A stretch of DNA of 52,844 bases from the NCBI GenBank assembly GCA_000934665.2, contig JYFJ02002678.1, forward strand, positions 1-52,844, given 5' to 3'. This stretch comes from Catajapyx aquilonaris. Lineage: Eukaryota. Positions 8,626 to 52,249 of this stretch are shown here, one piece after another. The notes below the pieces were generated by a model. That model had not been told where the DNA came from. It made no database searches and saw only the letters and a program-made list of their open reading frames with translations. A program made the translations under genes and the position numbers. The number at the start of each line of letters is the position of its first letter. The first letter of the stretch is position 1.

Positions 8626-8964
8626 TTATAATAATAATAATGCTGGGGTAATGTGCTTTCGCCCCCACATGGGGCACGGACCTTTATTTGTTTATGTACA
8701 ATTGGTGCCTGTTCATTTGAAACGCCCGGGCCCACGGGCAGGATGACAAGAGGGGATGTGCAAGGTGCAGTGCATCTGACGCTGTGGCCATTTTTAGTGA
8801 ACTCCCCCGGGTGGTTTAGTCTGTTGGAAATACCACCCGAGACGAAGCCAGAGGTGACCCTGAACTCTGCACGAGATGAAGGGGGTGTCCCCGGGCTGGG
8901 ATCGAACCAGGGACCTTAACATCCGTGGGCGCATACGTTACCGCAGCACCACTCCGCCTCCCCC
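8626..8964 (-). mobile_element. tRNA-derived SINE, family A, full length
   Basis: Head GGGGGAGGCGGAGTGGTGCTGCGG with B box GGTTCGATCCC and a (TTA)n tail. 16-bp TSD GAGACAACGTCTACTT at 8610-8625 and 8965-8980. Homologous to copies at 26855, 38366 and 48621. Confidence 0.92.

Positions 8965-9505: not shown

Positions 9506-9566
<61 letters not shown>
9506..9566. repeat. (TTA)n microsatellite
   Basis: Pure TTA run. Confidence 0.95.
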
Positions 9567-9568
<2 letters not shown>

Positions 9569-9856
9569 CGAAGCAGTAGTGGTGTAGTGGTAGGGTGTCC
9601 GACTGCTAATCGGGAGGTCCTGGGTTCGAATCCCGGAGGCCGGCGACCCTGACCATGGTTTTCTGTGGTTTCCCATGGTCCTTGCAGGATAATTCCGGGG
9701 TCGTTACCGTAATATAGGCCACAGCCACCTCCTTCCTTCCCTTTCCCTGCTTCATTCCGGTGATGAGAAAAATAGTAAAAATGGAAGAGTTCCAGACAAA
9801 AAATTGGGAGAAATCCCCCCCTAGGAAAGCCCGGTAGGCTGATAATGGGGTATCAA

Positions 9857-9857: not shown

Positions 9858-9905
<48 letters not shown>
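9857..9905. repeat. (TTA)n microsatellite
   Basis: Pure TTA run. Confidence 0.95.
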
Positions 9906-9907
<2 letters not shown>

Positions 9908-11399
9908 CCGTTCTCGAGCCATTCGGCTCGTTTTGGGGGGAGGGGAAGGTTCCCAAGGGGGGGGCATCCTCGGTTTATAGTCAGCACTCACGACTCTCTC
10001 AGATACACCAGACCTTTTCTCTGGGCTCGGGTAGCTAAGGGAGTGCAATCCTGCCCCGGCGTGTCGGGCGAAAAGCGGAAAAAGACCCGGCCAAGCAGAG
10101 GTGAAGGGGACGGGATTTGAACCCCGGCCTCCCGCTTGGGTAGCCAGTGGCGTAACCACTACACTACCACGCCTCCCTCAGAAGAGCTTCATAAACCTTG
10201 GGAAAAGGACAACCAGGTTGCAAGTAGCTAAAATACCTATAACACCGATAACACCATTGTCGTATATGCACAGTACGTACAAAATGAGGATGTAGGAACT
10301 CAGCATGGTATGGTCGTGGAAACATGGAGCTCTAGCTGTCCCGTAGGATTCTATATGGAGGGTCTTGTGCAAGCATGAAGAACTACTTTTTCAATGCAGT
10401 ATTTTCCACGTCAGTGAATGAGAAGTTGACTTTCCATTTCATAGCTTTGGGCAAGAAAACTGGTGCAGTTCATTGTGCGCATAAGGTCATTTGCCTCAGG
10501 AGATGCCTTCCCTTGGTCAAACGCCTCAAGCCATGATCCGTCACCTACTCCTAGTCTTATCCGTCCCTTGGATGACAAGTTGGAAGCAGATTGGCATGAA
10601 TTTCGCACTGACACGCAGCTCCCATCGCAAGAAACCTGATCAGTTCTCTCTACAGTATCGTGGTTAGTAAAATGGATAGAAACAAAGGAAATGGATGGAA
10701 ACAAGTGCCTCAAAGTGTCTGCATTTGCGACTTTTAGTTACTACTCAGGTGGAGGGCATGCCATCAAGCATCGGTCTCGGAATATACATCAACGTACAAC
10801 TCAAGAGAGTGAGGCAGAGAAAGATGACTGGCCAGAAAACATTGGTAGGTTGTTTTAAGTTGTTGTAGATGGGCCCCCACCCGCGTCCAGCTACACAGCT
10901 GAACATAATCTCCTAAGGTTTTCCAAAGAGGCAAACGGCAGCCCCACACTACTTAAATTTATTCTTGCTTGAATGTGTGACAAGCAAAGAGGAAGACTCA
11001 CTCTGCAAAGTAAGTTATTATTGCAATAACCTCCTTTGCAGAGTGAGCAAGTATTCCCCAGTATCTGTGCGGCATTTCATCAGTCACAATCATGTCCAAG
11101 AATTTGGTTCCATTAAAATTAATGGTAATTCGGCTAACATATCTATTATTTTCTCGCGAGCCATATATGACCCAGGATTGAAACTAACCATATTGAATCT
11201 TGTATGGGTCACAACTCCTGTCACCAAATGTGGCTGCTCTTACGCAAATACATCACTAATTGTTGCGGTCTAAAAACACTTGAGCATGTTACTGAGCATG
11301 TGACCGATGGAATGCCACACATGTTTTTCTGAGTGCATTTGAGAGGAAAACAAGTTCCATAGGCGCATTCTACTCGCGTTTCTCTTTAATTTTATGTAT

Positions 11400-14441: not shown

Positions 14442-14553
14442 CCTGAAGAATTAGTGCCGTACTGACCAAAAGGTGGCAGCACTCCCTTGGCCGCCGCCAA
14501 AGGCCGCCAAGGGAGTGCTGCCACCTTTTTCGTCACGGCACTACTTCTTCAGG
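14442..14553. repeat. 112-bp palindrome/hairpin (tiny MITE or pre-miRNA-like)
   Basis: Perfect 24-bp inner stem (14468-14491 vs 14506-14529) plus outer stems TAGTGCCGT/ACGGCACTA and CCTGAAGAA/TTCTTCAGG. Confidence 0.85.
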
Positions 14554-15035: not shown

Positions 15036-15194
15036 TTACTGGAAGGAGAGTTAACCAGTGAAAATATACATTGTAACATTTAACATCAATAATAAGAAGT
15101 GTTTGACACGCTCAATTTGAGAATAGGTGACAAGAGATAATCGGATTGATGTAGAAGGGAAATAAAGGATTTTCTGCTAGCTTTGAGGAATAGT

Positions 15195-15590
15195 CTACCA
15201 TCCGTAACCGCCGTAACCATAACCAATAGGAGCAGCAGCCACAGCCTTAGTAGCCACAACTGGGGCAGCGACGGCCAAGGGAGCATGGTGAACCACGGGG
15301 GCATGGTGAACCACGGCGGGGGCATGGTGAACCAAGGGAGCATGGTGGACCACGGGGGCATGGTGAACAACGGGGGCATGGTGAACCACAGGGGCATGGT
15401 GGACCACGGGGGCAGCTGCTACGGTGGCAATTGGGGCAGCGGCCACTGCATGGGAGGCCAGGCCATATCCATAGCCAAGACCGTGGCCATAGCCAAGACC
15501 GTGGCCATAGCCAAGCCCTCCATAGCCATAGCCCAGGCCGATGCCGCCGGGAGCGGCGCAGGCGGCGGCGGCAACAGCCAACAGGATCAC
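15195..15590 (-). CDS. Cuticular protein gene 1, exon 2 (Gly/Tyr-, Ala/Pro- and His-rich low-complexity cuticle protein; 135 aa with exon 1)
   Basis: Acceptor ttccccatAG|GTG. Encodes the rest of the signal peptide ([12 protein letters not shown]), GLGYGH repeats, AAP motifs, seven (V/L)VHHAP repeats and a GYGYGGYGW* end. No chitin-binding R&R consensus is visible. Confidence 0.92.
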
Positions 15591-16162
15591 CTATGGGGAA
15601 GAAGATTGGCAGTGATTGCTGGTCAGTACAATATCATCATTAGTAGTTTTTGTTTCATTGAGTGCAGGCCCGTATTACATACGTGATTGGATAGGAATGA
15701 CAGGCCCTGAGAGGGGGAAGCTGCAAAAGTTAGTTATCCTGAAATAAATGCTCGTCATCACTTGAAGTTTAGTCTACGTCGGAGGTGTGAAAATTCATGA
15801 CAGCACAATGGAATGGTTACTGTTGCAGACGCAACAAAGTGCACGAGTTGCTGACATAATGTGGTACTGACAAGTCAGTTGCCCCTCATTTGCTTCTTTA
15901 AATACTGTTGGAATGGCAGTATTCTCTGGCACGATTTCATCACCTGAGTGTGCAAGCCACATGTAATATGAATTTTGCTCCACTTTCACAGGGATCTTTC
16001 CATGAAAATCCCCATTGAGAAAATGCTATTTCATTGGCTATTTTCTGGCCAAAATTTTTACACCTTTTCAACGCACTAATATAAAACAACAATACCTGTC
16101 CAATCACCGTATATGATGTTAGTAAAAGCGGGGATACACTACAGAGCAACTCACTATCCTCT

Positions 16163-16233
16163 TGCCTCTGCTGGGAATCGAACCCAGGTCCGCACTCGTT
16201 AGAGCACGTGTTTTGCCATTAAACTACAGAGAC
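16163..16233 (-). ncRNA. Intronic tRNA-like cloverleaf in intron 1 of cuticle gene 1
   Basis: GTCTCTG TA GTTT AATGGCA AAAC A CGTGC TCTAACGA GTGCG GAC CTGGG TTCGATT CCCAG CAGAGGC A. All four stems pair and A/B boxes are present. It has an 8-nt anticodon loop and a 3-nt variable loop, and no SINE body or TSD. Confidence 0.75.
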
Positions 16234-16323
16234 TGTTGGGTCGAGTCGCACAGGATTAGTCGTTGGACAAACAAAATTCGGCATGCACTGTCGTCAACCC
16301 CCACATCTGTTCTAAAACCTTAC

Positions 16324-16335
16324 CAACTTGTACAT
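16324..16335 (-). CDS. Cuticular protein gene 1, exon 1 (MYKL)
   Basis: ATGTACAAGTTG|GTAAGG, phase 0, completing the signal peptide [16 protein letters not shown]. The short first exon is typical of arthropod cuticle genes. Confidence 0.88.
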
Positions 16336-16393
16336 GATGGGGTTGTGGAGTGGACAAAAGTACCGGATGCTTCTGTGATAAGTGCTTGTGGTC

Positions 16394-16430
16394 AGCTGAA
16401 GTCCTGTCTGCTGGACACCTTCGTTTTATA
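16394..16430 (-). promoter_or_regulatory. Core promoter of cuticle gene 1 (TATA plus Inr-like)
   Basis: TATAAAA at 16430-16424, with Inr-like TCAGCT about 31-33 nt downstream and ~60 nt before the ATG. Confidence 0.7.
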
Positions 16431-19018
16431 CTTGCAAAGTTGCCCCGCCGGCTGACGGGGGTTGGTCGGGGAAGTGAGAGTTCACTTGTGTTTCTTTTTT
16501 TTATTTTTTTTTGTTTACGTCGCACACTTCTACTGAGTTGCATTGAGAAAACTAGGGCCAAGGCAAAATTTAGCCGGGCCAACCTGCCCCAAGTTACCCT
16601 TGCTCCCTACCATCTGGAAAATTTCCCGTTCGCACAACCTCATTTCCAAGACTGGTTTTTTGGTGCAGCATATTTCTTCTCGAACATTCAAAATGCGGAG
16701 GTGGCTATAGATGGGGCGTGTCCTACAGACGGATTTATTGGACATAGTTGGCATTATAATAACGTTTCTTTTGCAAGTGTTGTAAATGCCCACTTTTTAT
16801 GCAAATGCAGATAGAGGATGTCTCAATCGGGTTGATTGGCTTTTTTAAAAAAACATGGCGAGAGTAACCTGGCAAATATGAAATATTGGAGAGCGTTCAA
16901 CACCATGGTGCAAATCGTGTTTTTGGTGCAAAAACATATAGTGACAACAATGGCAGGCCCAGTTTCCGAGAAAACTGCGTTCCACCGAGGGTCACTTGTG
17001 TAAACCACTTTTCCCTGGAATCAGGCCAAAGTCCGATCATCTGAGGTAGTTACCTCCCGGGCAGTTTTTTTTTTTTCATTGCAAATCGTTACAACATACC
17101 CGCGTAATACTACTCTCCTACCTGCTTGTCTAGACTTTTTTGTTAAACCGTGGCTGGGCAATTAGAGAGGATTGATGAAAGAATCAAGGTTCATTAAGGG
17201 TGAGGGAACAATCAAAATATTTTCTTTCTCTCGTGGTTAGTTTCACTGCCATTTATTACGATCGGTCGTTCGCTTATACACCTAATATAAAGGAATGGGT
17301 GGGGTTCGAACATTATCAAGCAGGTGGGTAGATGGTCGACTCTTGCGTCCCTAAATGCATAGTCAGATCACCTATACGTTTGCTACTGGATTGTACTGGA
17401 AGTACAGGCCTTGCCGACCTTTTGCATGTGCCCTAAATCTGTGGCCTTTGCATTGCCGTATTCCTGTTACCTGGTGGTGTCTTATCTGACTTTCTAGTAC
17501 AGTACATTTTCTTCAACTATTATGGCAGAAGGCAAACAAATCAAAACCAGTCTTGACTCTCTCCTCCCTCTGGAAGTTATGGTGGAACATGAATTTGCGG
17601 TCTTTCGATGCTTTCAATAATACTGCCCGACATTTATTCATGACGATGTCCTAAATCGTGCAATGAATGGCGAATAATAGCATTTTTATTCTTGCTAGTG
17701 TCGAATTATAATTTATATAGGGCTACGCCAGTGTTTGATTATGAAGCGTATTTTGCTTACATAATAAAATGCGTTAGGAATATCTGAAATGGTGTAGGAA
17801 ATATGTTAATAAATTCGGGACAATGACGGAAAATATTTTGAAATTGAATTTTTGGCATTTTATTTAATTTGAAAAGTACGTGAGGCAGTTGGCCATCTCA
17901 TTTCAAAATAATATTGACCTCGCCCTACATGACGGCCGGAGGTGAATATTGCCGCATATTAATCGCCTGCTTCATTAGAAACACTGTGATATTATGATGG
18001 CCTTATGATATCTTTGCCAATTAAGCTGAAATGCAAAACGAAATCATAGTGGCAACAATACATTTTATCAGTTTATTCAATCTTCCCGATTCTTTCAAAA
18101 AAAAGAAACGGACAAATACATACCGTATATGATTATTATTATTACATGTTTATGACCAGAACTTTCACCCCACTAATAACTATAAGATTACTTTACAATA
18201 AGTAAAGACGTATCAGTAATGGCACATAGCGCACGGATCTCAGAAATTTCTACTTAGAGCTCGTTAAAACCCCTCTTAAATAAATTCACAAGTAAATATT
18301 ACTGCATGCCAATAGTTTAAAAAATTGAGTGATAACAAGCCCTTTTATCTACGAAAGTTATAAAGAGACCTAGTTTAGAGAAAAGAAGTAGGCGATTACA
18401 ATAAATGCTACTTTCTACTGCACACTGCTACTATCGCACTACAAGGTGAATAAAATAGTGTCTAACTACAGCCTGTTTCTACTGTATCGCGAATGAATTC
18501 TTGAGTGTAACTGATGCTTGTATAGCAATGGAGTTGAAAAAAGCCATCTTAAATAAAACAGCAGATTGACCACTTTGAATATGAAACAGACCAATATATT
18601 GCACGTTTCACCAACGTTAACATCGTGAGATAACCTTCTTAAACAGCGACATGTAGTCGCGATACAGACTGCCGCATTTAAGAACATAGCGTGTTTCTAC
18701 ATCTGGCTTTGTACTTTCATAATCTCAGGCGGAATCCTTGTCGGTAACTAATCGCACCAAGGCCTACTACTGTATGCACTACTCATACTTTTTCAATGCT
18801 AACTCTCTAATACAGAAGAACTAGAAATTATATAGTCGTTACTAGGATTGCTACAGAGCACAGCCTAATCCCTCAACCATTCTAAACCCATCACTAACGT
18901 TACTCTACCTTTTCTACGACTACAGGTATGTTATATCTTAAAATTGGAGTGTATAGGTTTCCTTGTACTACAGTATATACGACTACCAGATATAATAATC
19001 AGGGACGGACCACCTTCA

Positions 19019-19444
19019 CTAGAAAACTCGAATAGGGGCTGCCACAACTCTGGTAGGAGCAGCCGGCAGGTGACCTGCGTACTTGGTCAGAGCCAGGGGC
19101 GCTGCATACTTAGTCAGAGCCAAGGGCTCTGTATACTTGGCCACGGCGACGGACACCGGAGCTGCTGCGACTAAGGCTGGAGGTGCACGGTAGAAGGCGC
19201 TGTGGCTGTAACCGGTGATGACAGGAGACACGAATGGGTTGGCCAGATAGGTGGGATGAGCTGAGATGGCTGGGGCTGCTGGGCCGGGTATCACCTCGAA
19301 GTCTTCCACCAAGGCAGATGATGGACGGGCCAAACGCACCAGAGGAGACGTCTCCGGACCAACAAAGCGCACCAGAGAGGCTGCCTCCGGGTGCAGGACA
19401 CCTGGGCGGGCTTCCATTGTGGCAATCAGCATAACCAGGATCAA
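19019..19444 (-). CDS. Cuticular protein-like gene 2, exon 2 (secreted, Ala/Pro-rich; 145 aa with exon 1)
   Basis: Acceptor ggaaatAG|TTG. Encodes LILVMLIATMEA (signal peptide), AAP motifs and 9-aa tandem repeats KY(TE/AA)PLALT, ending in a TAG stop. Confidence 0.82.
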   Translation of the reverse strand: MILVMLIATMEARPGVLHPEAASLVRFVGPETSPLVRLARPSSALVEDFEVIPGPAAPAISAHPTYLANPFVSPVITGYSHSAFYRAPPALVAAAPVSVAVAKYTEPLALTKYAAPLALTKYAGHLPAAPTRVVAAPIRVF

Positions 19445-21182
19445 CTATTTCCGGGAATGGAGGCGCATTGAACTCACAGGAAGAAAATGTTGGTAAAGAG
19501 TTGTACAAGAGTTTACTTACCTGGGCGTCTGGATTGACCTGCCATGCCGAGTTTTTTTTCTCCCGAATTTTAAAAAACAACATTAATATTTTGAAATACA
19601 TTGGTCAATTCAAATTTTGGAACAGCATCAATATATTGCGCTGAAAGTCTGCATGAAGAGCTCTGATACAGAAGTGCCTAAAACAGCTTAAATTAAAAAC
19701 AGAATGAGGAACTTCTGCATGTGAGCCTTTCAGTTTAATTACAATAAAATTATAGTATGAGTTATTTTTCCTACACAAAACATGAGATAAAATAGTGCCT
19801 CACCTACCTCTAATGCTGATAAAAATGGGATTACTCTAAAATACTTTCTTGATGATATACACACGAGTTTAGGATAAAATCAATCATACCTTGGCACGTC
19901 TGCCTATACAATATTGCCCAATAAAAATGTTAAATGAATCAAGCATGTATCATGCAAAAAAGTCCTGCGAAAATGTGGTGCTTTTGTTGCGGTTAGTGTA
20001 GCCTGGTCTATTCAAGAAAGTCCAGCTACAATAAGATATAGGCTGCACAAAATGAATAGTACAAGGCAGAATACTAAAATCATTATTAGCCAATAGTGCT
20101 GTGAAAATGCAGATTATATGGACAGAATAGCCAAGAAGAGATAATTATGCTGTAGGTAATAGTATGAGTAATAGAAGGTTGGTTCATATAGAGCAGGCGT
20201 TATATGGCTCCGAAGAACAATGCAATCATGACCAAGGAATGCAGAATCAGGAAAGTATCGAGTTTTATAAAACAGCGTAAGGGGAAGAGGGTTCATTTTG
20301 GACTGTGGCAGAAATGAAATCAACATGCTTAAAATGCCACTAAATTGAATTTATTGTTAGTGTCAGTGTGAAGATGTTAGAGAGAATAAAATGACAAAAA
20401 GTATTGCATCAAACAAAAAATAGTATCAAAGAAAGGGAAGTCGTATGTGAAGAACTGTAAATGGTAATATAGTTAGAAAGATGGGCTGAAAGTACCAGAT
20501 AACTACTACACTATTAGAAACTTCTGAAAAATGTTTTGGAACGTTATACCTTCTACTCTAATGTAACTAGATATTGTACTACATGTATGGTGTATTGGCT
20601 TACCACCGAATAAAATTTTTAAAATTCCACTATCTAATAGTTAGCGAAGAATGTAAATATTAAAGAAACTTATATGAAAAACATTAACAAATAATGTTCA
20701 GTAATACAATACACCGATAAGATTTTTTGTGAAGCATTTGACACAGTAAGGAAGAATCTAAATCCTTTTAGAAGCAATTCTTTCTCAATAGCAGTCCTCA
20801 TACTATTTTGTATTAGAAATAATATTGTATTCAGTAACATTCAAAGTGTAGAGCATTAGGAAACTATCACATGAAACTACAATAAGTGTAAGGAAAAGTC
20901 CTACCTGAGGGAGCTTGAAGCAAAATGGAAACCACAGGAAGAGAAAAAGAGTATTGTATTATGCGGGTAAAAGATGTGACTGCTGTTAGTGACCCTAGAA
21001 ACCTGTACGCAAACAATCAGAGCAAGACCCATCGTACCATTTTGAAGTACATCTTGCAGACGTGATTTACGTAGGTTTGTCTGATACAGATAGAAACAAT
21101 GATGCCTGTCACCTGTAAATATGTTAAAAAAGGAAGCTATAAAGGGAGAGAATGTACGAGGAGTTCAACACCAGTCCCCATA

Positions 21183-21252
21183 AGCCTTTTCCAGGAATCG
21201 AACCCGGGTCCACACTTTAAAAGTGTGTGTTCTACCACTAAACTAAAAAGGC
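21183..21252 (-). ncRNA. Intronic tRNA-like cloverleaf in intron 1 of cuticle gene 2
   Basis: GCCTTTT TA GTTT AGTGGTA GAAC A CACAC TTTTAAA GTGTG GAC CCGGG TTCGATT CCTGG AAAAGGC T. Acceptor and anticodon stems are perfect and A/B boxes are present. It has a nominal TTA anticodon and a 3-nt variable loop, and no SINE body or TSD. Confidence 0.78.
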
Positions 21253-21338
21253 TGTTCAGTGGAGAGGTCCGGTGAGGAAGGTTGTTAAAAAAAAAGAATC
21301 AGCAAAAGTTAACTCACCTCCACCCTAGTCAAACTTAC

Positions 21339-21350
21339 CAACTTGTACAT
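21339..21350 (-). CDS. Cuticular protein-like gene 2, exon 1 (MYKL)
   Basis: GCC ATGTACAAGTTG|GTAAGT. The coding 12-mer is identical to gene 1 exon 1 and is in phase with exon 19444-19019. Confidence 0.82.
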
Positions 21351-21434
21351 GGCTGTGAACTTCCCCGTCTACCTGCAGGTCAACACAGAAGGATGGACAC
21401 TGGATTGATGCTCCTACTGAGGAGCCACCTCTGT

Positions 21435-21441
21435 ATTTATA
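21435..21441 (-). promoter_or_regulatory. TATA box of cuticle gene 2
   Basis: TATAAAT(A) ~85-90 nt upstream of the ATG, similar to the spacing in gene 1. Confidence 0.65.
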
Positions 21442-23639
21442 CTCTTCTTCTTGGCCTTTGGTGGTGGCAGGTGGCCAACAGGTTGAGGAGGGGGCAATCT
21501 AGGCGTCACCTCTGCTGCATCTATCTTCATATTGCTACATTCTATTAGCATTTGGAAGGGCAGCTTGGAAGGGATGGCGCGTATGCAGATGTTTTGGGGA
21601 CAGAATTGGATCGTGCCCTCTCCTCTCTTTTGCGAAACCCTGCATCAGATTGATTTAACGCGGCTTGAATGTATTCATCTGGCGTATGTTAAAACACCTG
21701 GGCTTGACAGAGAAATTTTCTATCTTGTCTCCTCCTCTTTTCCTCCTAGACTTGTGTCAACAAGACGGGCAGACGATGAATAAGTATTACTTTCTGTCGG
21801 ATTATCGCCCTCTTTGTTACATATGGTCTTCATTGGAGCATAATATACTGCTGGAAGAATCAGCTGTTTTTTTCCTAAATAAAGACTGCAGCGAGACTTC
21901 CAATAGTCACATGTAATCGTGGCCGGGCCGTTGTTTTCCATTTTTGCGGAAGGTCTACAGGGTCTTCTTTGTGGTACATTGCGACAGTGCCTGTGTATAA
22001 ACAATGAAGGTAGCAAAGGTAGAAAACCGGCCTGAGACAATGTTATAGTTTTTTCGCGACGACACTGAACCGTTATATATATCACAGGGTACGTTACATT
22101 ATTCATAAGGGGAATTTCCAGGGGGTGTTAATAATAACTTAAGCTTGTACACGATGTGAAAGCACAGTTTTGACGTAATATTTTTATGAAAATTTTAGAT
22201 ATGCTTTTTAATATTTCGTGCACAAATAGCTCGTATTATGCCTAAATGAGTACTGTACATGCAGAGTAGAATAGGTACAGTTATAACTTTGTTATGAAAA
22301 TGTATGTAAATTTGTGTCAGTTCTTTTTTGTGCCCAACCGCAGGCCTAAAGGTGGATTATATTGCACTAGCTTGTTCACTCACCTGCAGTGAAACGTTTC
22401 AGCGCTTCCATGAGCCACAAAACTGATTCTTTTCCCGTAAGAATTACTTCCAGGTTATGGAACTTTGCACTCAAAACAGAGCCGGATAATAGCATTTCCT
22501 GATCTGTATCCCGCTTGTGACAGAAGGCTATATGCGTCATATCTCCAGAGAGAAATTTCGGTATACCGCATTATAAAATGTACGGTACTCTGACGGGTGA
22601 GAAAAATGGCCTTATTACTTTTGAAAGCCACTATATATATTAAATTTGCATAAAAATTTGTAAATTGTTAAGGAGCAATGGGCTTTCTCAGGTTTCTAAA
22701 TAAGCTACCGACACAAAAAATTGCAAAATATTTCATAAGCGATTGGTTGATTTTGCAGTACCTTCGTAGTAATCATATGCTGAATATATTAGAATCACAA
22801 ATCCTCTTTTGCAAATATTATATTCGACTTTTAATATTCATATAACCTCTGTTTTTATCAAGCCTCTGTGGGAACTGTGCCTCAAAGCGTGTTATGCAGA
22901 TTCTCAGATTTTTCAAAGTGACTAGATATTGCATCTTGGCTGTAAGCAGCGTGTATACATTGTACAGTAACTTCTATGCAGTTACAGTACAAGAATACTG
23001 ACAGCGATGTGAATACAGGCAAGCACTTCCACATTCTCTCAGTATACTGTACACGTATTCCCAGGCAAAAGAATTTATGAAATTCCAAGTTGCTGCTATA
23101 CTATATAGTCCATCGGACACTGTGTTGCCAATGCAAGCATATAGCTACTAAAAACAAACGGAATCTCGATGGAAAAAATTACGCTACTGCATTGTTCTTG
23201 AATACTCTCCATGCAAACTCATGGTACGTTGTACTGTAAGCTCGGCACGAGGCAGCACAAAGGCATGATTTGCATTATTATCATATGTCTCAAAACCATT
23301 CCCCTAGGCCTCTCAGTTACGCTAATCACATGAACAAAATACAACCATGCACGTGATTTAGAATCCACACTTTAACGGGCCGTGGTGATAAATTCAGGAA
23401 GGACATGTCCTTAAGGATACTTTTGTTTGGTCCCACTGCAAGATTTTCAATGAACAGTATTTTTGTCGCATAAAACGGAATCTTGTTCACCCCGGACTAT
23501 TTTTCCGGAACGGAGAGAGTCCACTTGTCGCCCGTTTGTCTGTACTAAAAACAATGGCTTAACCTTTGAGAACTATTTGTTGAACATAATAATAGGAAAG
23601 AAAACGTTTTCAGTGCAAAATAATAATAATAATAATTAT

Positions 23640-26854: not shown

Positions 26855-27101
26855 GGGTCACCTCTGGCTTCGGCTCGGGTGGTATTTCCTACAGACTAAA
26901 CCACCCGGGGGAGTTCATTAAAAATGGCCACAGCGTCAGATTCACTGCACTTTGCACATCCCCTCCTGTCAATCTGCCCGTGGGCCCGGGCGCTTCAAAA
27001 ATAGGGTTCCCAAAAATTGTACACCATCTAAATAAAGGTCTGGCAGAAGGCCCCTTTGGGGCTAGCCGAATACCCAATCAATTATTATTAAAATTATTAT
27101 T
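26855..27101 (+). mobile_element. SINE family A, 5'-truncated
   Basis: Starts mid-body (GGGTCACCTCTGGCTTCG) and ends in an ATT tail. 15-bp TSD AAATTGTTGGAAATT at 26840-26854 and 27102-27116. Confidence 0.92.
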
Positions 27102-38365: not shown

Positions 38366-38689
38366 AGGGGAGACGGAGTGGCGCCGCGGTAACGTGCGCG
38401 CCCACGGATGTTAAGGTCCCGGTTCGATCCCAGCCCGGGGACACCCCCTGCATCTCGTGCAGAGTTCAGGGTCACCTCTGGCTTCGTCTCGGGTGGTATT
38501 TCCTACAGACTAAACCACCCGGGGGAGTTCACTAAAAATGGCCACAGCGTCAGATTCACTGCACTTTGCACATACCCTCCTGTCATCCTGCCCGGGCGCT
38601 TCAAAAATAGGATTCCAAAATTGTATACCATCATAATAAAGGTCTGGCAGAAGGCCCCTCTGGGGCTAGCCGAATACCCAATCAATTAT
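38366..38689 (+). mobile_element. SINE family A, full length
   Basis: A-box-like TGGCGCCGCGG, B box GGTTCGATCCC and a short ATT tail. 13-bp TSD TATACCGTAATTT at 38353-38365 and 38690-38702. Confidence 0.92.
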
Positions 38690-41042
38690 TATACCGTAAT
38701 TTTTTATTGTAAATGTAGACTATCTATAACTCGCCATGTACAGTTTGCCAAAACATTTGATTAATTCTCCGAGGTCTGTGTTCAATCAGCATTTTCGCGA
38801 CTAGAGAATTTATCAAATAAATACCTAATAAAGCCCGACATGAATAATTCGATGACTTGATGTCCACACGGAGACCGGGGGGTAAGGGTAGGCATGAGAG
38901 CCGCTATAATTTTATCCCAACTCGCAAACTCCTACACCACTTTATCAAACTCTCCCATCCTGCGGGGCATTTGCGACCCCCCACACCCCCATTAGTTTCC
39001 CTTCAAAACGACTTTTTCGGCGGGTGGCGGGAGGGGGGGGGGTAGGGTGGAAAAGGAAGGAAGAGAGGCAGACTATGCCACGTCCTATAATGTACGCGTC
39101 ATTATTACAGCCTTAATGAAGAGAGGGAACAGTAGACACGGTTTGAACTGGAGATGTGGAAGGGAATTTGTCTCTTTCAGACCTCGGAAACACTCTGAGG
39201 GATGCTAATGCCCTTTAGTATAACGTATGGAGATCTGTAAATCTTTGGGTTCGCTTCTTTTGCCATTTCAACCCTGATAGTGAGAGCTTAACTCCTGCAC
39301 ACACACACCATACATCTTGGGGGTTTCAAGTGCTCATTTCCACCTCTCTCAACGGGTAATCTTGAAGCCTCAGGCTGACAGTCATTTCTTGTTGCAGATA
39401 CTTTGAGCGTGGGTGGTATAGGCAAGCTGGGGGAAACTCTGGATGAGGGTTGGAGCACACTTTATGTTGATGCCATAGTTAGAAATTAAGAGGTAAACTT
39501 AATTACGTTTTAATCTTGATAGAATATGTACTATTTCGTATATTTAATATTCAGTTCAATGAGGAAAGGTCACTGTTGCCCTGCGAAGAAATTATCAACA
39601 CACAGGTGCACCTCTAATCCCTATCTGCTTACGGGGTCATTACCTCTGACACATTGCACCACACCTTGAAAAGCTAGACCTTGAATAGAGCATAAACTTG
39701 TCTATTGGGGTCAATCCATGAGTATAACCGGTTGTGTGTTTTCAGTTAATATTGACAGGGGTCAGAGGGTCATGAGACAGATTGATTTCAGGTGGATGCC
39801 CGAGTGTTCTAGAAAGTATTTATTTCGAGTAGGTTGATACCCACCCATTTTCTGCAGCACCGAGACAGTAAAATGACCGGGAGAAAGTAAAACTAGTTCC
39901 GTGGAATTAATTTTTGGATTGGGGTTTGATGAGGTTTGGGAGCAGCCATCTGTGCCGAAATCTGGAGGTCATGGTCAACAATTTTTAGGGACTTTTTAAG
40001 GTGAAACATGCTTCATATTGGCGAAAATAATATTCAACCTAAATCAATAGACTTTTCGTAGTTTCAAAATGTGAGATTTTTAAATAGAAAAGTGTTAAAA
40101 GCCACACCGAAAATGTGTTACTTTGTTGGTTTATATAGATTTTTTTTTTGTTCTCGGAACTTATTCGACGCCCATCACATTAAGAGTTAAAACGGGCAAA
40201 TAGCCGTCTGCGCGTTCATTAGTTTGCGTCTTTTTAGTAATGGTTGATAAGGAAATCACCTGGGGAATTTATGAGGCGCAATGTGTCAGCTGAGCTATCG
40301 CTTTTTTCCCTTAAAATGAACATTGCAGCTAATACTGTCCGACAACGTACATTAGATTTTATTACGCCTCCTTTTGTACTGTGTCCTAATTGGCTTCATT
40401 ATCTGTTTTTAAACGCAAGGACTGGCCTGGAATAATTAGGGTTATTAGTTCAACACCAACAGGTTCAATGGGAAGTTTGTCCAACGTGAAAATTTATTGC
40501 TTAAAAGGAATAATTATTGAGCGTAAAATTGGCACTCGCCATGCCATATTGTTTTGCGCAATTGAACTCTAGTAATTGGTTCCAACCGCCTGTCCACTCC
40601 TCATACATCACCGCCACCTGAAAAATATTGACCGTCCTGCAAAAACTAAAAAGTCATTAAAGAGTTCACACCACCATTACTTTCCCTACCTACCTGGAGC
40701 ATCTAATAATGTATAAGTAGGCAGCGAGTTTTCCATTAAGCCCATTTGAAGTGAGTCAAGGTATCTCACAGGGGCTCATGAAAGCACAATTTGGTTAGTT
40801 GTGGAGTGGCAGAGGGCCAGCTTTAATGTCGCGTGGAAGCTCCAAGCTGCGATCAGTTTGGCTGGCTCCAACAAAAGGGGAAAAACCGGTGTCGGAGTAG
40901 TGCACAGCGACGAATCTAACGCCGGCGCGCCTCCGGATCACGTGAGTCGGAGAGCGCCTGTTTCGCAGCCCACCACCGGATCGAAGGCAATCCGCCACGT
41001 GTGGAGCCCCAACTCAGAAGCTCCTGGACCGTCAGTGCGACG

Positions 41043-41804
41043 ATGCTGTCCCATCTGGACTCCGACACGTGCTTGGAGCTACTGGACCCTCCTCATCGGC
41101 AGATGAGGGGCGTGCGGCTCTTCCGGGAACTGTTTCACCGGAGACGCTGTCAGGATACAGAGTACTTCAAACTTGAGGAACGAGACACCCATCGCAGTTG
41201 CGAGTCGCTGGATTCGCTGCTGGACGACGAGGTGAGGGACCGCCGCGTGTCCTGGAGCGGGATCTTCCGGAGTACGTCGTTCGGTGGCGGGTGGCCTAGC
41301 GGATGGGGTGGTGGTTGGTCCACCGGTTGGTCTTCGGGATGGCCTCGAGCGAGGAAAAGAAGCAGGGAGCCGGGGCCACACAAGAGCGCGTCGTTCCCGC
41401 CACCCAACCGCCTCCAGTATGCCCAACTCCGGCGGTCTGCGTCGGTTACGTCCACCACCGGACCAAGACGACGCTCTTTCCTGCTGCCTAGCTGGTGCCG
41501 GAAGGACACGTCGCCTGACCCTCTAGGTAAGCCGCCTAACAAAGGGCGGTTCCGAAGGGCGCTGGAGTCGCTGGCGAAGAAGACCAAGGGTCCACCCAGG
41601 AAGCATAAGTCACCTAAGAAGATTCTGAGGCCGCCTGTGCTCCACGTGTACGCCAAGGGTCCGTCGGGGCTGCCGACGCAAAGGATCCCGTCACGTTGTC
41701 GACGGGGATCGGTGGCCCGCTTTCAAGTGTTTCATTTCCCGCCGCCGACAGAGCCCGTGTTCTCAGGAGTAGGCTTTCTTATGGAATCGCGGTGGTGTCT
41801 CTGA
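41043..41804 (+). CDS. Uncharacterised basic, largely disordered protein (253 aa) with a C-terminal SGLPT motif (DUF4797-like)
   Basis: Longest ORF in the window, in a GC/CpG-rich island. First ATG at 41043; the ORF track start at 41001 is GTG. PKKILRPPVLHVYAKGPSGLPTQRI resembles the arthropod SGLPT-containing DUF4797 (from memory). RRxS phospho-motifs and GW repeats are present. Confidence 0.75.
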   Translation: MLSHLDSDTCLELLDPPHRQMRGVRLFRELFHRRRCQDTEYFKLEERDTHRSCESLDSLLDDEVRDRRVSWSGIFRSTSFGGGWPSGWGGGWSTGWSSGWPRARKRSREPGPHKSASFPPPNRLQYAQLRRSASVTSTTGPRRRSFLLPSWCRKDTSPDPLGKPPNKGRFRRALESLAKKTKGPPRKHKSPKKILRPPVLHVYAKGPSGLPTQRIPSRCRRGSVARFQVFHFPPPTEPVFSGVGFLMESRWCL

Positions 41805-42918: not shown

Positions 42919-42989
42919 GGTCTTGTAGTGTAAGGGCAGCACTCTGGGTTCCAAATCCAGCGGTCCGAGTTCGAGTCTCGGCGAGGCCT
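42919..42989 (+). tRNA. tRNA gene/pseudogene with a tRNA-Gln-like body and CCA (Trp) anticodon, possibly a SINE head
   Basis: GGTCTTG TA GTG TAAGGGCAG CAC T CTGGG TTCCAAA TCCAG CGGT CCGAG TTCGAGT CTCGG CGAGGCC T. All stems pair. The body resembles eukaryotic tRNA-Gln (AGCACTCTGG..AATCCAGCG.TCCGAGTTC..TCTCGG, T discriminator). Confidence 0.65.

Positions 42990-43754: not shown

Positions 43755-43829
<75 letters not shown>
43755..43829. repeat. (ATT)n microsatellite
   Basis: Pure ATT run of about 25 units. It may be the tail of a retroposon fragment at ~43380-43754, but no TSD was found. Confidence 0.95.
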
Positions 43830-46800
43830 TCTGCTGCTGCTGCACCATAGTGTCCTGTGGTGATGAGTTTAGTGGGCGAGGAAACCCCGTTGGGATGAGT
43901 TGCCATTTAGCCCGATTAGTAACGCAGGTCATGATGAGTGCGACACCCGGTGCAGGGTGTAGAGAATGAGGGGTGTGTTCCTGTCTAGGCGAGTCCGAAA
44001 CGCTCGTTGAGACTACTACATTCCCGTTTGTTATCACGCCCGAGAATCAGCGAGCCCCGGGAAACTAATATTGTGCCCCGCACTCAGCTAACTCGATAAC
44101 TTCAGTGTCTCCCCGGACCGTAACTGGATTACGCAGCCGCCAGCCTGACGTGTAATTCATCCCAATTTACGACTAGAGGGCACTTGTTTGTCAGAGCAAC
44201 AATCTTCGAAGCCCGTCATCGCCACTCGGGGGCGCTTTCAAGATGGCTCTTGATTTTTTCCCCCGTTCTCCACCCTATCAACCCTCTCTTTTTGCCAGCT
44301 CGTTTTCTGGACTGAAACAAAATGAGGACTTCACAGATGGCCGAACTTCCGCGTTTTTTATTGTTAAACCCGGATCCACTGCCAGAGTTGGAGGTAGGAA
44401 CCTTTGTGGGGAGGGCGCCCACCTGACTGTGTTTTAAGGGTCACAGCCCGTGTCCCTCTTCAGAAAAATTTCCATTTATATTGCTGTTCCAAGTGTCCTT
44501 AAAATTGGCTTCGTCAGAAAGTGAAGATTTTGCTATTCACTGACTTTAATACGTCGTAACTGGCTGATCAAAAGGTCCTAGTCCAATGTAGATCAAGCAT
44601 TGGGCTTCTTCCTAGCCCTTATCTACTTTGCAGGGTCGGTTCGACTTAACTATGGGCATTCATCATTCTAATCTTTGTGGAGTATGTTCCACTTGGAGAT
44701 TACCACAGTGGAATAGTTTTCCCCTGATAGTTTTGAATGTTTTTAGCATTTAGGGCATGATTTTCAGAGCGTCGAATTTCTTTCCCAGAGTGGATCTTGC
44801 GCGTGGTTCTAATCCATCTACGTAATGTTGGCCAAACGCTACAAACCGGATTAGAAAAAGCAATAAGAAGAAATGAAATGGCGATGCACATATACCAAGT
44901 AAGAATTCCTGAGTGATTGGTTCCCCCCCCCCTCCCCCCTGCTTCCTTCGCAGGCCTTGATTCATAAAATCGCTCCAGAAAGAAGGAAATCCCCAGAAAA
45001 ACCCACACCTCATTTTACAGCCTACGAATCGCTTTTTTTCCCTACCTATACTCGACATACAATATTTTCCGTGATTGTAGATTTTTTTAAAACTCTCCAC
45101 TATTGGAATGAAGATTGTAAGGGTGATCATTCATCATGCCAGCCAGAAGCATTCGTAATCTCAGTATCTCACTCTACAAGATGACGACCCCGGGGCGCCC
45201 TCTTTTATAAGGCTTGTGGATTACATCCTCCTCTTATTCTGTGCCATCCCTGTCTGTTTTCTCAGCGAGTTTGTAAGGCATAGTTTTTGAAACCAATTTT
45301 CTCAAAGGTTTTCAGTTACAGATTAATTTAACCTGAACGTGTTTTGTTACAACCCCAGCAATAACATGCCGCTTGAAAATCCCGTTGAAATATGAGACTC
45401 GGAGAAATCCGGGTGCGTTTACATTTTACTCTTTGCATTTAAAAGTGCTTAGTGTCGCAGTGGAAACTGCTGAACGAAACGAAATACAAAAATTCATTTA
45501 GGAATATTGAATTTTCCCTTCCGTTTTTATGGGTAACCACAAGACAACTTATATTGGCAACTAACTCAATTTCGTAAGAAATATGGAGGAGTATAATAGG
45601 CACCGCATTTAGAACCGAATTAATAGCTTTAGAGTGTAAAAGCAGCGCAAAAAGGGCAAATATTAACGTAGGGGAGGGCTAATCTAGGCGTTCCACCTTC
45701 TCCAGCCAATCACTATGATTTGTGGCTCCTCTAACACCCGGACACTGTGGCTGGCATCTTGAAGGAAACATTTTGCTGATGTAAGTATATTTTGATTAAG
45801 TTCTAAACTATTTGAATAGACGCCCAAAATATTGGATACAAAATGCAAGGAAATGTGAACCAAAAAGTAGCCTGTGGCTGAATTAATTTTTATATTTGGC
45901 TGGCTATGTGAACATGTGCAACGTGAAAGTATATCTGCATAAGGTCGATCATATTCATTGTCACTTGGGCCAACTTGTTATGAAAGTGCAAAAAGTATAT
46001 CATACATGCCTCTATATATCAATATTATTTATTTATTTATTTTTTAAAACTGTGTGTTGGGAAGGTCTGTATCACCCTGATGGAAGTTGTCCTTTTCTAT
46101 TTTTAGTCTGTGTTTTCTTGGGGTGAATTTGCGTTTGATTTTACTGTATTATGTTAAAAATTACGCAGTGATATTATAAAAAAATTAACCAAGAAAACTA
46201 GCAAAGTACATTTTGCTACAATGTGGATTATAGATGATGGTAAACTGCCTAAGTTGAATCAGCAGCAAGGAACGGGGAAAAATTATTCTTGTAATGTAGG
46301 CTATTATTATCGTCACTCTTTCTACATCGGGCTACTAGTGTTATGCACTTGCGCACTGGAGCGAGTAACCCACAGGAGTAATTCATCACGTTTTACACCG
46401 CCCGATTGTCAGAGTGTGTACCACCATGGAGGCTGCAGTACACAGGGAGTATCTTAATAGTGGGACTTATAACCCGCAACGTTCTCGTTGGTGGGGAGGG
46501 GGAGTGTTCAAATTGATATGTCCTTTAGGCAGCGATTTTTGGCACTAAGCTGCTTATTTTAAACACGTGCTTTTTAATAGTTTTAGAGGTTATCAAAAGT
46601 ATTAGAATGTTAAGAATGTGTGGACTCGCTTTTAGCGAAACCTGCAAGTATAGGTCTGGACTGAAAAATATGGGTTGAATCATTGATGTTCGATGCCGAT
46701 TATTCAAATGGGCCATTCCCTATCGGAATTTCATTTCAATTCCGACCTTGGTTAGATGATTCAATTTGATCAGCAGCTAATACTTTTCATAACCTCAAAG

Positions 46801-48620
46801 TAAAGGTTCGAACATTTCTGCTTAAAATTAAGCAGCATAGAGCCACACACTAGCCAACTGAAGTGGAAAAAAACATCAGTAATAAAACACCACAAATGAC
46901 TAGTTGAGAAAACCACTCTTGTTAAGAAACACCCTGTACATATTAGTTATGCACAAGGTGAGCCGACTCCATTTACTCGACTGAAACACGTCACTACGGT
47001 CGCACTCATGTAACTCCCAAAGCCATCGTATGTCCCTAGCTTTATTAGAGCGCCGAAGCGAATTGCATAGGTGTCTCCTCGCCTAGTCGCACGACCTAAT
47101 GAACGTCACATATACGCCAAGAACGACAATAATGAGGATCCAGCTCTCGGGAAGACAATGTCCGTTGACATTTTTTTTTTCCGGCTCAGTTGGTCGACAC
47201 GTGCCTTATAAAAATTGCATGACGACCCCCTTTTTTTGGAGACAATGTGTCGGAGTCACTGGCCTCTTACTGCAACATATACATTGCTCAGTCGATATCA
47301 CAAAAAAGGTGTAGTAGTGCTTAAAATAATATCCCAGTAACCAGCACCATTTAGCCAAATGTACAGGGCAGAAAAGTGGTCTTTTGCAACAAAAAAAAGT
47401 GCAGGCTTTTTGAGCTTTCCAGCTCCGGCTAATTAGGTGGTCATGTTATGTGTTTTTGGCAACTATATGCGTGTTAGCCCCCACGATGCATCAGGCCGAA
47501 ATGAGGATTAGGAGCTGTTCCTCTAGCGCCAGAATATAATGCATCTTTTATTTCCCGACGGAAGCAGATGTGTTGTCCCCACGCAAATAGTGGCCCTCAT
47601 GAATGGGAAATTAAGCTCATGATAAATATTGTCAGCTGCTTATTCGCATGGAATGGTTAGGACAACAAAAAAACTTTTCCAGTTCTGCATTATGCTGTGG
47701 GCAAACAATAACCGGGCTTTATAACTACTGTTCTGCCGCCATTGTGTAGTTATATCGCCCATCACTTAGCAATGACCCATAGTCTGGAAGCTGTAATGGC
47801 TGCTACGCTCTGAGCCAAGAGTAAGGCCCGGATTCACACTGGGGTAGGCAGGACACATCAGATCAGGCCATTACAGGAGAAACCAACCGTGAAGATGTTA
47901 CGGTCGTGTGTAGTTGACGAATATTCGGAAGGGAAAAGGGATTTAAGTCTTTGGAAATGATCCGTTTGGTTGTACTCTGGACGACAATTGGATTGGTGCA
48001 GATGGAAATTGTCATATTGATTCCTTTTCATGGTGGTGAATTGCCAACATAAGTTCATTTTGGCGTTGGGATTTTTTTTGGCGCAAGAACAGTGCGGATG
48101 GCATTCTGACCAGCAACGAAAGTACAGAGTTTTTAATTCTTATTTAATTCTTGTAAGTGCAGGTGGGTTGTAGACTAATATATTGCATGTCAACAAAATT
48201 CATAATTTAAAATATCACTTTAATTTGCGTTGCATAGTAATTTTCTACTCTGATGCAATCAAGTCGATAATGTAGCCGACAGTATTGGACTATATATCTG
48301 CCGGGACATTTAATTTCCAAATATGATATGTGATACGTGCAAGTATTACTGATTAGTTGTACAGTATTCAAGGTAAGTTCAAAGTTCAAACAATAAATAG
48401 GCCTACATTTGCGTAATGAAAATGTAGATCAATGCATTATGGCGATGGTAGGAATATATTGTTAACAGTTAACCGTATTGGTCAGGGATATTTGCATCAG
48501 CTCGTGTTTATAATTTTTTTTGCCCCATATCTACACATATATGGGGGGTGGATTACCACCATCGGGATTATTTTTGGAGCGAGTCAAGATTTAATCTTGT
48601 TAGTATGCTCCAAGGTAATT

Positions 48621-48834
48621 AGGAGGGGATGTGCAAAGTGCGTGTGCGCGGGCGAGTAGTGGTCATTTTGTGAACTCCCCCGGGTGGCTTAGTCTATCGG
48701 AAATTGCCACCCGAAACGAAGCCAGAGATGGCCCAACTCTGCACGAAAGAAGGTGGGAACCCCGGGTGGGGATTGAACCCGGGACCTTAACTTCCGTGGG
48801 CGCGCGCGTTACCGCGGCGCCACTCCGTCTCCCT
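48621..48834 (-). mobile_element. SINE family A, diverged copy lacking its 3' tail
   Basis: Head GGGAGACGGAGTGGCGCCGCGGTAAC with B box GGTTCAATCCC. The body is homologous to the other A copies up to CACATCCCCTCCT. Confidence 0.85.
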
Positions 48835-51687: not shown

Positions 51688-51849
51688 TCATATCTGGAGC
51701 AACAGAGCCACTCCAGCCAAGACCCATTTTCCAGGCTTTTCCTTTGTCTTCAGATTAAAGGTCCAAACGTAGGTAGGTCCTCTCATCCGAGTCTTGTAAA
51801 CAGGACATTCGTACATGTTACGCATGTCCTGCTTGTCTTGCGTGATGGC
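51688..51849 (-). CDS. Dhc93AB: Axonemal dynein heavy chain, outer-arm beta type (DNAH9/11/17; Dhc93AB-like), terminal coding exon
   Basis: Acceptor ccttttcttcctcAG|GCC. The translation AITQDKQDMRNMYECPVYKTRMRGPTYVWTFNLKTKEKPGKWVLAGVALLLQI* is the canonical beta-dynein C-terminus. Upstream exons were not found in the window. Confidence 0.93.
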   Translation of the reverse strand, partial: AITQDKQDMRNMYECPVYKTRMRGPTYVWTFNLKTKEKPGKWVLAGVALLLQI

Positions 51850-52249
51850 CTGAGGAAGAAAAGGAACGATCGCACATTTTTGAGAGCAGTTACCGGAGAG
51901 GATTACACGGAGGCATGGGACCATGCAGCAATTTATCGGGGAATGTTGCCGTATCTCGACTGGTGCTATAATATTGCTTTCTGTTAGAATGCAATGGGGA
52001 GGATTTGGGACGTTGGAAGGTGGTGTACTACAGTACTGTAGGCCCATGCAAAAATTGATCCGGGGGAACCGTCTATGACATATGTGTCTCTGGCCGGGGG
52101 GAGGGGGGATCGTAGGAAAAATATATAATTAAAGAATAATGTAACATGTGAGGGGATTTTGTTGGGGAGCAGCTAGGTCAGATTATACTACGGATTTTTG
52201 GGGCGAAATGTTCGTAATTTTAATGGAGTAGGAGTACTAGAGCATAAAA

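Follow-up and report, generated by a model that had tools for sequence, protein, structure and literature searches.

The stretch of DNA analysed here is a 52,844-nucleotide (nt) contig of Catajapyx aquilonaris (assembly GCA_000934665.2, contig JYFJ02002678.1, positions 1 to 52,844; hereafter the window), and our subject is a pair of genes on its minus strand, gene 1 and gene 2, which share the same arrangement and each carry a transfer RNA (tRNA)-shaped element on the sense strand of the first intron, close behind the splice donor. The two elements have diverged in sequence, yet their cloverleaf is fully paired in both, and both belong to a dispersed family of tRNA-derived sequences. A preliminary description of this DNA, made by a model from the letters, had proposed a tRNA-mimicking module of a cuticle gene family. 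The reading that we favour, and hold tentatively, is that both paralogs inherited a single ancestral intronic copy, which has been kept by selection on RNA shape within an RNA polymerase II (Pol II) transcript.

Both elements were called as tRNAs by ARAGORN (element 1 at 16163-16233 on the minus strand with an undefined anticodon, element 2 at 21182-21253 on the minus strand as tRNA-Stop(tta)) and by the Rfam tRNA model (RF00005), which gave 45.5 bits (expect value, E, 1.4e-06) to element 1 and 60.2 bits (E 1.3e-10) to element 2 against a gathering score of 29. With introns starting at 16323 (gene 1) and 21338 (gene 2), these calls bear out the sense orientation and the offsets of 90 and 86 nt given in the preliminary description. 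Each element has stems of 7, 4, 5 and 5 base pairs (bp) and the conserved letters of the D and T loops, and the stem sequences quoted earlier proved correct, with 23 of 23 pairs standard in each. The AACA leader and the 3-nt variable loop (GAC) said to be common to both were confirmed as well; Infernal scores a deletion in the 4-column variable region of element 2. A canonical tRNA has a variable loop of 4 nt or more. The anticodon loop has 8 nt and no assigned anticodon in element 1 and a regular 7 nt in element 2, where TTA would read a stop codon. This difference in loop size, also claimed before, stands in the cloverleaf reading but not in the lowest-energy folds: these are cloverleaves for each element folded alone (z -2.86 for element 1 and -2.21 for element 2), and in them the anticodon arm becomes a 7-bp hairpin in both, with a loop of 3-4 nt (4 nt in element 1). 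Judging from the 3-nt variable loops, the 8-nt loop of element 1 and the TTA of element 2, neither element is predicted to decode.

Runs of four or more T stop RNA polymerase III (Pol III). Element 1 has no internal run of this length, and its first downstream T4 lies at +36. Element 2 contains a T5 (positions 4-8) and a T4 (31-34), so a full-length Pol III product of it is unlikely; its first downstream T run (T6) lies at +52, and its T-rich acceptor strand is fully compensated by A's. Neither the comparison of gene 1 with gene 2 nor a self-BLAST of the window revealed the body, tail or target-site duplication of a short interspersed element (SINE) at either element, and the self-BLAST gave no further similarity for the elements or their flanks. 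The similarity ends at the tRNA borders with no flanking direct repeats, as the preliminary description had it.

The pairing has outlasted considerable sequence change. Element 1 and element 2 differ by 19 substitutions and one indel, and 15 of the 19 substitutions fall in paired columns. Five pairs have changed on both sides, five on one side while staying compatible, and none is broken. When 19 substitutions were placed at random on element 1, a mean of 8.3 pairs was broken, and no pair was broken in only 3 of 200,000 trials. As a control, the 3' partners were slid by 1-3 columns, upon which pairing fell to 33-58%. The earlier suggestion that tRNA shape rather than decoding is preserved is supported by these results, since 23 pairs survive the 19 substitutions, both elements are without decoding features, and element 2 carries its T runs.

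Both genes begin with the 17-mer ATGTACAAGTTGGTAAG, which comprises the ATG, three codons and the donor and lies at 16335..16319 and 21350..21334 on the minus strand; a third copy was not found within the window, even with up to 3 mismatches. The start of exon 2, which continues the signal peptide, is also conserved: within the window TAGKTGATCCTGKT occurs without mismatch only at these two exon starts, and a further match, at 47434-47447, has 2 mismatches. The two proteins did not align beyond the signal peptide, where they are unrelated low-complexity sequences, and most of exon 2 is indeed unalignable, as had been stated. In exon 2 of gene 1, tandem 18-nt-type repeats at 15275-15414 (minus strand) encode repeated VVHHAP units. 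For gene 2, splicing is documented by a contig of sequencing run X5, which we take to be RNA-derived, the kind of run not being on record. The contig joins 19444 to 21339 and skips 1894 nt with the ends CT..AC on the plus strand, that is, GT..AG on the minus strand; this joint occurs in none of the DNA runs X1-X3. It follows that gene 2 is expressed, that its splicing agrees with the prediction, and that element 2 is removed along with its intron. The corresponding splice of gene 1 is drawn by analogy with gene 2. X5 has no contigs over gene 1 or over element 2, from which we draw no conclusion. A TATA-like box, possibly a promoter element, precedes each gene (Table 1).

Table 1. Features of the two paralogous genes and their intronic elements (positions in the window)
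Feature	Positions	Strand	Description and basis
Element 1	16163..16233	- (sense)	71 nt, 90 nt into gene 1 intron 1; ARAGORN, Rfam
Element 2	21183..21252	- (sense)	70 nt, 86 nt into gene 2 intron 1; ARAGORN, Rfam
Gene 1 first coding exon	16324..16335	-	ATG TAC AAG TTG (MYKL); from sequence, donor GT at 16323-16322
Gene 1 intron 1	15591..16323	-	733 nt, predicted GT..AG; frame 15195-15590 opens directly after AG
Gene 1 exon 2	15195..15590	-	Rest of signal peptide, then Gly/Tyr/His/Ala/Pro/Val-rich low-complexity protein, stop TAG; open reading frame list
Gene 2 first coding exon	21339..21350	-	ATG TAC AAG TTG (MYKL); spliced contig covers 21339-21366
Gene 2 intron 1	19445..21338	-	1894 nt, GT..AG; contig joint 19444 to 21339
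Gene 2 exon 2	19019..19444	-	Rest of signal peptide, then Ala/Pro/Val-rich protein, stop TAG; open reading frame list, X5 contig 19006-19444
TATA-like box, gene 1	16424..16431	-	Putative; about 95 nt 5' of ATG; sequence and alignment
TATA-like box, gene 2	21434..21442	-	Putative; about 91 nt 5' of ATG; sequence and alignment
Weakly similar block, gene 1	16084..16126	-	Downstream of element 1; first T4 run and CAG|GT motif; local alignment to 21094-21131
Counterpart block, gene 2	21094..21131	-	Downstream of element 2; T6 run and CAG|GT motif

Outside the elements, the two introns have little in common. Gene 1 and gene 2 resemble each other only over the tRNA part, at 76.6% in 64 nt, and over exon 1, at 95.5% in 22 nt. 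Out of 2000 shuffles each, 73 reached the score of the spacer between donor and element (177 if the donor was left out), 616 that of the 5' untranslated region and promoter, and 1557 that of the 100-300 nt downstream of the elements. The block 35-95 nt downstream of the elements reached its score in 18 of 2000 shuffles under loose scoring and in 193 of 5000 under stricter scoring. The flanking intron had been called unalignable by eye, which is right in so far as it is near-random by shuffles, but not wholly, because a weak residual similarity is left. A local alignment of the whole introns was discarded as meaningless, its score being reached in 52 of 300 shuffles. Within the block, at 16096|16095 and 21113|21112, a T-rich stretch and a TAAC motif stand before CAG|GT, 226-228 nt past the donor and 3' of the element. 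These CAG|GT junctions resemble a recursive splice site, in which a 3' splice site abuts a 5' splice site; the block similarity is statistically weak, and the X5 contig at gene 2 shows only the final exon 1-exon 2 product.

The hosts had been described as cuticle genes, and this holds for the composition of gene 1 but finds no domain to match it. Neither exon 2 matched PF00379 (R&R, Chitin_bind_4) or any other Pfam family at E up to 1; the one exception, a KRTAP match, was below threshold. Of the 30 proteins matched by the low-complexity part of gene 1, which is similar to the flanks in PF00379 proteins, 20 contain PF00379 and one is named 'cuticle protein 21-like'. For the gene 2 protein, the search gave no credible homologues, and a repeat-protein match (E 8.6e-05) was judged spurious. 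The term cuticle-like is thus used provisionally in this study, for amino-acid composition and gene layout and for no domain.

Relatives of the elements were sought in Logan contigs of X1-X3, three DNA runs of one sample that may be the source of this DNA, by comparison with positions 15100-21500 at 80% likeness; the contig counts given for the family are lower bounds among the matches listed, and single-copy depth in X1 is 31.3. Full-length relatives of element 1 are 81-94% alike, with 4-13 other letters and 0-4 gaps, and span 16156/16166 to 16230/16241. Because their loose ends set in at 16162-16166 on one side and from 16228 onward on the other, with low agreement (0.52-0.67), the family similarity stops at the tRNA borders or at most about 8 nt from them. 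Summed depth over the anticodon arm of element 1 is 341-411 against 31.3 for a single copy in X1, or about 11-13 copy-equivalents by our own arithmetic. At position 16192, in the 3' half, summed depth reaches 1411, and A replaces the G of the window in 21-24 contigs. Change is commonest at 16207 (7-8 contigs); combined with the A at 16192, it gives pair 27:42 the A-T of element 2 in place of the G-C of element 1. The other listed family variation clusters in the anticodon loop (16198-16202). Gene 1 exon 2 has nearly no extra depth (39 against 31.3 in one bin), so the copies elsewhere do not lie in close paralogues of gene 1. Relatives of element 2 at 80% or more are almost absent (the bin 21092-21305 has a depth of 34.0 against 31.3 in X1). 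In each DNA run, one contig has a joint from 16197 to 21226, with 9 other letters between, that brings together the 3' half of element 1 and the 5' half of element 2; both elements therefore belong to one family.

In run X5, three contigs carry the 3' half of the family sequence. One of these records, 1172 letters long with a depth of 2298 (about 700 times that of the gene 2 contig), matches 16163-16199, and its loose end, on the minus strand, is the matching 5' half. Since this contig carries both halves, a family member would lie inside an abundant long RNA contig, provided that X5 is RNA-derived as we take it to be. Some copies elsewhere share 7-8 nt of the element 1 leader (16234-16241, including AACA) or trailer (16156-16162), and several loose-end consensus strings 3' of element 1 resemble one another and the element 2 trailer. 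With leader and trailer letters shared among copies, the repeated unit may exceed the tRNA by a few nt on each side.

On the reading that we favour, the elements would be diverged members of this dispersed, ~71-nt, nuclear-type tRNA-derived family that no longer decode. The ancestor of the two genes, coding for a secreted cuticle-like protein, would have held a family copy about 90 nt into its first intron, and a tandem duplication of that gene would have passed the element to both paralogs. Common descent is suggested by the place and strand that both elements share, and the near-equal offsets, the identical exon 1 and donor, and the conserved exon 2 start are consistent with it. The rough chance of a second independent copy landing on the same strand within 5 nt of the same offset is about 3 in 10,000, given 3 strong tRNA-like matches in 52.8 kb, and independent insertion is accordingly rated as unlikely. 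The surrounding intron would then have diverged past clear alignment while compensatory changes kept the cloverleaf perfect. Neutral decay at these loci is excluded because the flanks are scrambled and the element is intact, and a cloverleaf kept in this way while the intron diverged would point to selection on RNA shape. Most likely the shaped RNA would arise within the host's Pol II pre-mRNA or intron, because element 2 contains T runs, both elements lie on the sense strand, and the distance to the donor is fixed; a Pol II-made RNA also fits because TFIIIC binding alone would not require compensatory changes. There, proteins of tRNA processing or associated with splicing could recognise it as a structured part of the intron, with the outcome that it aids donor use of the tiny first exon or is excised as a small tRNA-like RNA.

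Two known kinds of intronic tRNA-like sequence come closest, and the elements may work like them. One is the nimtRNAs, human intronic look-alikes of mitochondrial tRNAs, which are described by Hoser et al. 2020 (PMC7722341) as intronic splicing enhancers that depend on the cloverleaf, a single nimtRNA working best 50-100 bp behind the 5' splice site. Like the elements here, they are sense-strand tRNA shapes in introns of protein-coding genes, with the cloverleaf kept despite base changes; unlike them, they come from mitochondrial DNA insertions and are without canonical D and T loops (PMC7722341). The present elements are of nuclear type: their D loop contains GG and GGTTCGATTCC is perfect. 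They occur in another organism and gene class. They are not nimtRNAs, because their loops are of the canonical nuclear type; their flanks have no further similarity in the window, and this assignment involved no direct comparison with the organism's mitochondrial genome. The other kind is found in Caenorhabditis. According to Sagi et al. 2016 (PMC4999229), 47% of C. elegans tRNA genes are intronic and 56% of those are in sense orientation, the pairing of intronic tRNA and host is conserved, the host promoter affects tRNA expression, and some sense-strand intronic tRNAs could, its authors suggest, be released from pre-mRNA. The likeness lies in a Pol III-type tRNA unit within the intron of a Pol II gene, kept with its host; the worm tRNAs, though, decode and are conserved between orthologues (PMC4999229), whereas the elements here are non-decoding, one has internal T runs, and it is paralogues that have kept them, at a fixed distance from their first donor.

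Two further classes were considered. The mascRNA and menRNA modules of MALAT1 and NEAT1 are, like the elements, tRNA-shaped and non-decoding within a Pol II transcript and potential substrates of RNase P and RNase Z. They sit at the 3' end of long non-coding RNAs, beside a triple helix, and the elements sit in the first intron of protein genes. The mascRNA/menRNA class, which the preliminary description had brought in as an analogy, does not extend to them: the Rfam model (RF01684) gave element 1 24.2 bits against a gathering score of 42.5 and did not match element 2 at E up to 10. With tRNA-derived SINEs and pseudogene families the elements share multiple copies, tRNA derivation and A and B boxes, and such families are common in this window and genome. 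The many dispersed copies fit a tRNA-derived SINE, but the head-plus-body structure, tail and target-site duplication are absent; there is no tRNA-unrelated body, and only the ~71-nt tRNA part and at most about 8 nt on each side are shared. A literature search of limited coverage found no work joining tRNA-like sequences, introns and cuticle proteins.

Several results, those from the family among them, weigh against the reading that we favour. At least 7 other contigs per DNA run (1.3-12 kb, with single-copy depths of ~21-39) match full-length element 1 and have unlike flanks. The idea that the element is particular to these two genes is thereby contradicted, which goes partway to the outcome that the preliminary description had itself named as refuting it, numerous intergenic copies in random places; a module specific to the cuticle family is unsupported by the tests made here. 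The 3' half of element 1 is shared by 21-24 contigs. Among the matches listed, some copies elsewhere differ from element 1 by 4 other letters and 3 gaps in 70, whereas element 2 is only 76.6% alike; closer relatives outside are awkward for simple descent, unless the element 1 lineage seeded copies or was converted. As the family is dispersed, conservation of shape may be a property of the family and not of this intron. The comparison is also limited to two sequences, with no orthologues. Homology between the flanks of the two introns looks weak, the best of 29 control chunks from the same intron equalling the score of the downstream block under stricter scoring, and folding ~305 nt of the 5' part of each pre-mRNA gave z of 0.55 and -0.07 and no common larger structure. 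The nimtRNA study further reports that nuclear tRNAs reduced mRNA when inserted in the same intron, and that nimtRNAs are not cut out as 70-nt RNAs (PMC7722341). The A and B boxes, finally, are intact in both elements, as expected for use by Pol III or TFIIIC.

The main rival explanation is that each element is a nested Pol III-type unit or TFIIIC site duplicated with its host, so that what is kept is a Pol III promoter with a tRNA-like product, or a DNA-level TFIIIC site influencing the Pol II gene. Scored against consensus motifs, the A box matches at 9 of 11 positions in element 1 and 10 of 11 in element 2, and the B box GGTTCGATTCC is perfect in both. Many single-copy family loci with unlike flanks are what tRNA genes would show, downstream T runs are present at +36 and +52, and the conserved intronic tRNA-host pairs of C. 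elegans provide a model (PMC4999229). The trailers before the first T run, at 35 and 51 nt, are long, however, and the fixed donor offset would have no role. While element 1 would fit, the internal T5 and T4 of element 2 should stop Pol III inside the element; TFIIIC binding alone, for its part, leaves the five two-sided compensatory stem changes unexplained. We regard this account as rather unlikely, though worth keeping in view. We judge it very improbable that the elements are genuine decoding tRNA genes, in which case element 2 would be an ochre (UAA) suppressor and element 1 a tRNA of the frameshift type. The 60.2 bits of element 2, its regular 7-nt anticodon loop, T at position 33 and A at 37 would suit this reading, and both nearby genes, two genes only, end in TAG and not TAA; but the 3-nt variable loop in both, the 8-nt loop of element 1 and the internal T5 and T4 of element 2 speak against it, and no metazoan nuclear code is known to reassign UAA.

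The elements might also be functionless pseudo-tRNA repeat copies whose shape reflects their source genes, brought to the same place by separate insertions at a favoured site or by gene conversion of an old copy. A multi-copy family with borders exactly at the tRNA ends is what this would produce, as are relatives of element 1 elsewhere that are closer than element 2; the hybrid contig of each DNA run (joint 16197 to 21226) shows that family members share mixed sequence, and the window alone holds 3 strong tRNA-like matches besides SINE heads. Separate insertion has to overcome the estimate of about 3 in 10,000 for a second hit at the same offset and strand, and the absence of a body, tail or target-site duplication. 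An origin by conversion from other family members is conceivable, but donors for element 2 look poor, since almost no relatives of at least 80% likeness are seen over its bin, and gene conversion would be expected to work poorly over 71-nt tracts with a likeness of only 80-90%. We consider a functionless relic unlikely.

If selection has indeed kept the shape for a role in the host pre-mRNA, the elements would give the human nimtRNA splicing enhancers a natural parallel among invertebrates, with a nuclear tRNA relative as its raw material and with the donor distance that worked best in reporters, and "tRNA shape as an intronic signal" would become testable outside mammals. One could go further and propose a position-fixed cis module ~90 nt past the first donor in secreted cuticle-like genes, and perhaps in other Pol II transcripts, which is made by Pol II, is read by tRNA-processing or splicing proteins, and secures splicing of the first exon of 12 coding nt or releases a tRNA-like RNA along with host expression; we think this extension doubtful, and put it forward as speculation. 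If, on the other hand, the family consists of scattered pseudo-tRNAs, the case would be one of an ordinary nested repeat duplicated by chance with its host gene, and it would warn that covariation seen between two family members is no proof of selection at a particular locus.

Other tRNA-like sequences are present in the window. A covariance model of both elements (R1), scanned over the window with filters off, gave 98.2 bits for element 1 and 94.0 bits for element 2, then 42.6 bits for 42919-42989; nothing else exceeded 15.3 bits, the next matches being weak SINE heads. The sequence at 42919-42989 (plus strand) is a third tRNA-like element, also well formed: the Rfam tRNA model gives it 54.4 bits, ARAGORN reads the anticodon cca, and the variable loop has 4 nt. 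It lies about 1.1 kb downstream, on the same strand, of a reading frame with DUF4797 and looks like a member of a different tRNA-derived family. Four SINE-like copies (8716-8963, 26855-27088, 38367-38692 and 48621-48833) are 81-95% alike, occur in both orientations and are unrelated to the intronic elements, and a weak tRNA-head match (9580-9636, 29.9 bits) lies near one SINE-like copy. A metagenome scan with the D-arm-to-T-loop pattern of both elements returned at least 119 matches; 80 of these loci were retrieved, and 39 of the 80 were checked by ARAGORN: 34 of the 39 were ordinary tRNA genes (Gly 12, Thr 7, Ala 5, Trp 2, His 2, Val 2, and Ser, Tyr, SeC and Met 1 each) and 5 gave no gene at the match. 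Being generic and matching ordinary tRNA genes, this motif is uninformative on the family.

The remainder of the window holds several unrelated features. A near-perfect GC-rich hairpin at 14459-14539 gave weak, sub-threshold matches to several microRNA precursor families on both strands (the best to mir-6644, 37.3 bits against a gathering score of 82). Inverted duplications at 1-426/648-1071 (98.6%) and 33932-34043/34257-34368 (95.5%) could be the terminal inverted repeats of DNA transposons. The long reading frame with DUF4797 (E 4.7e-09) occupies 40920-41801 on the plus strand, in a GC-rich stretch, and an exon at 51691-52128 on the minus strand encodes a dynein heavy chain C-terminal domain (E 7.8e-13). 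Trinucleotide microsatellites at ~9540-9580, 9860-9920 and 43780-43870 appear as runs of I, N or Y in six-frame translations.

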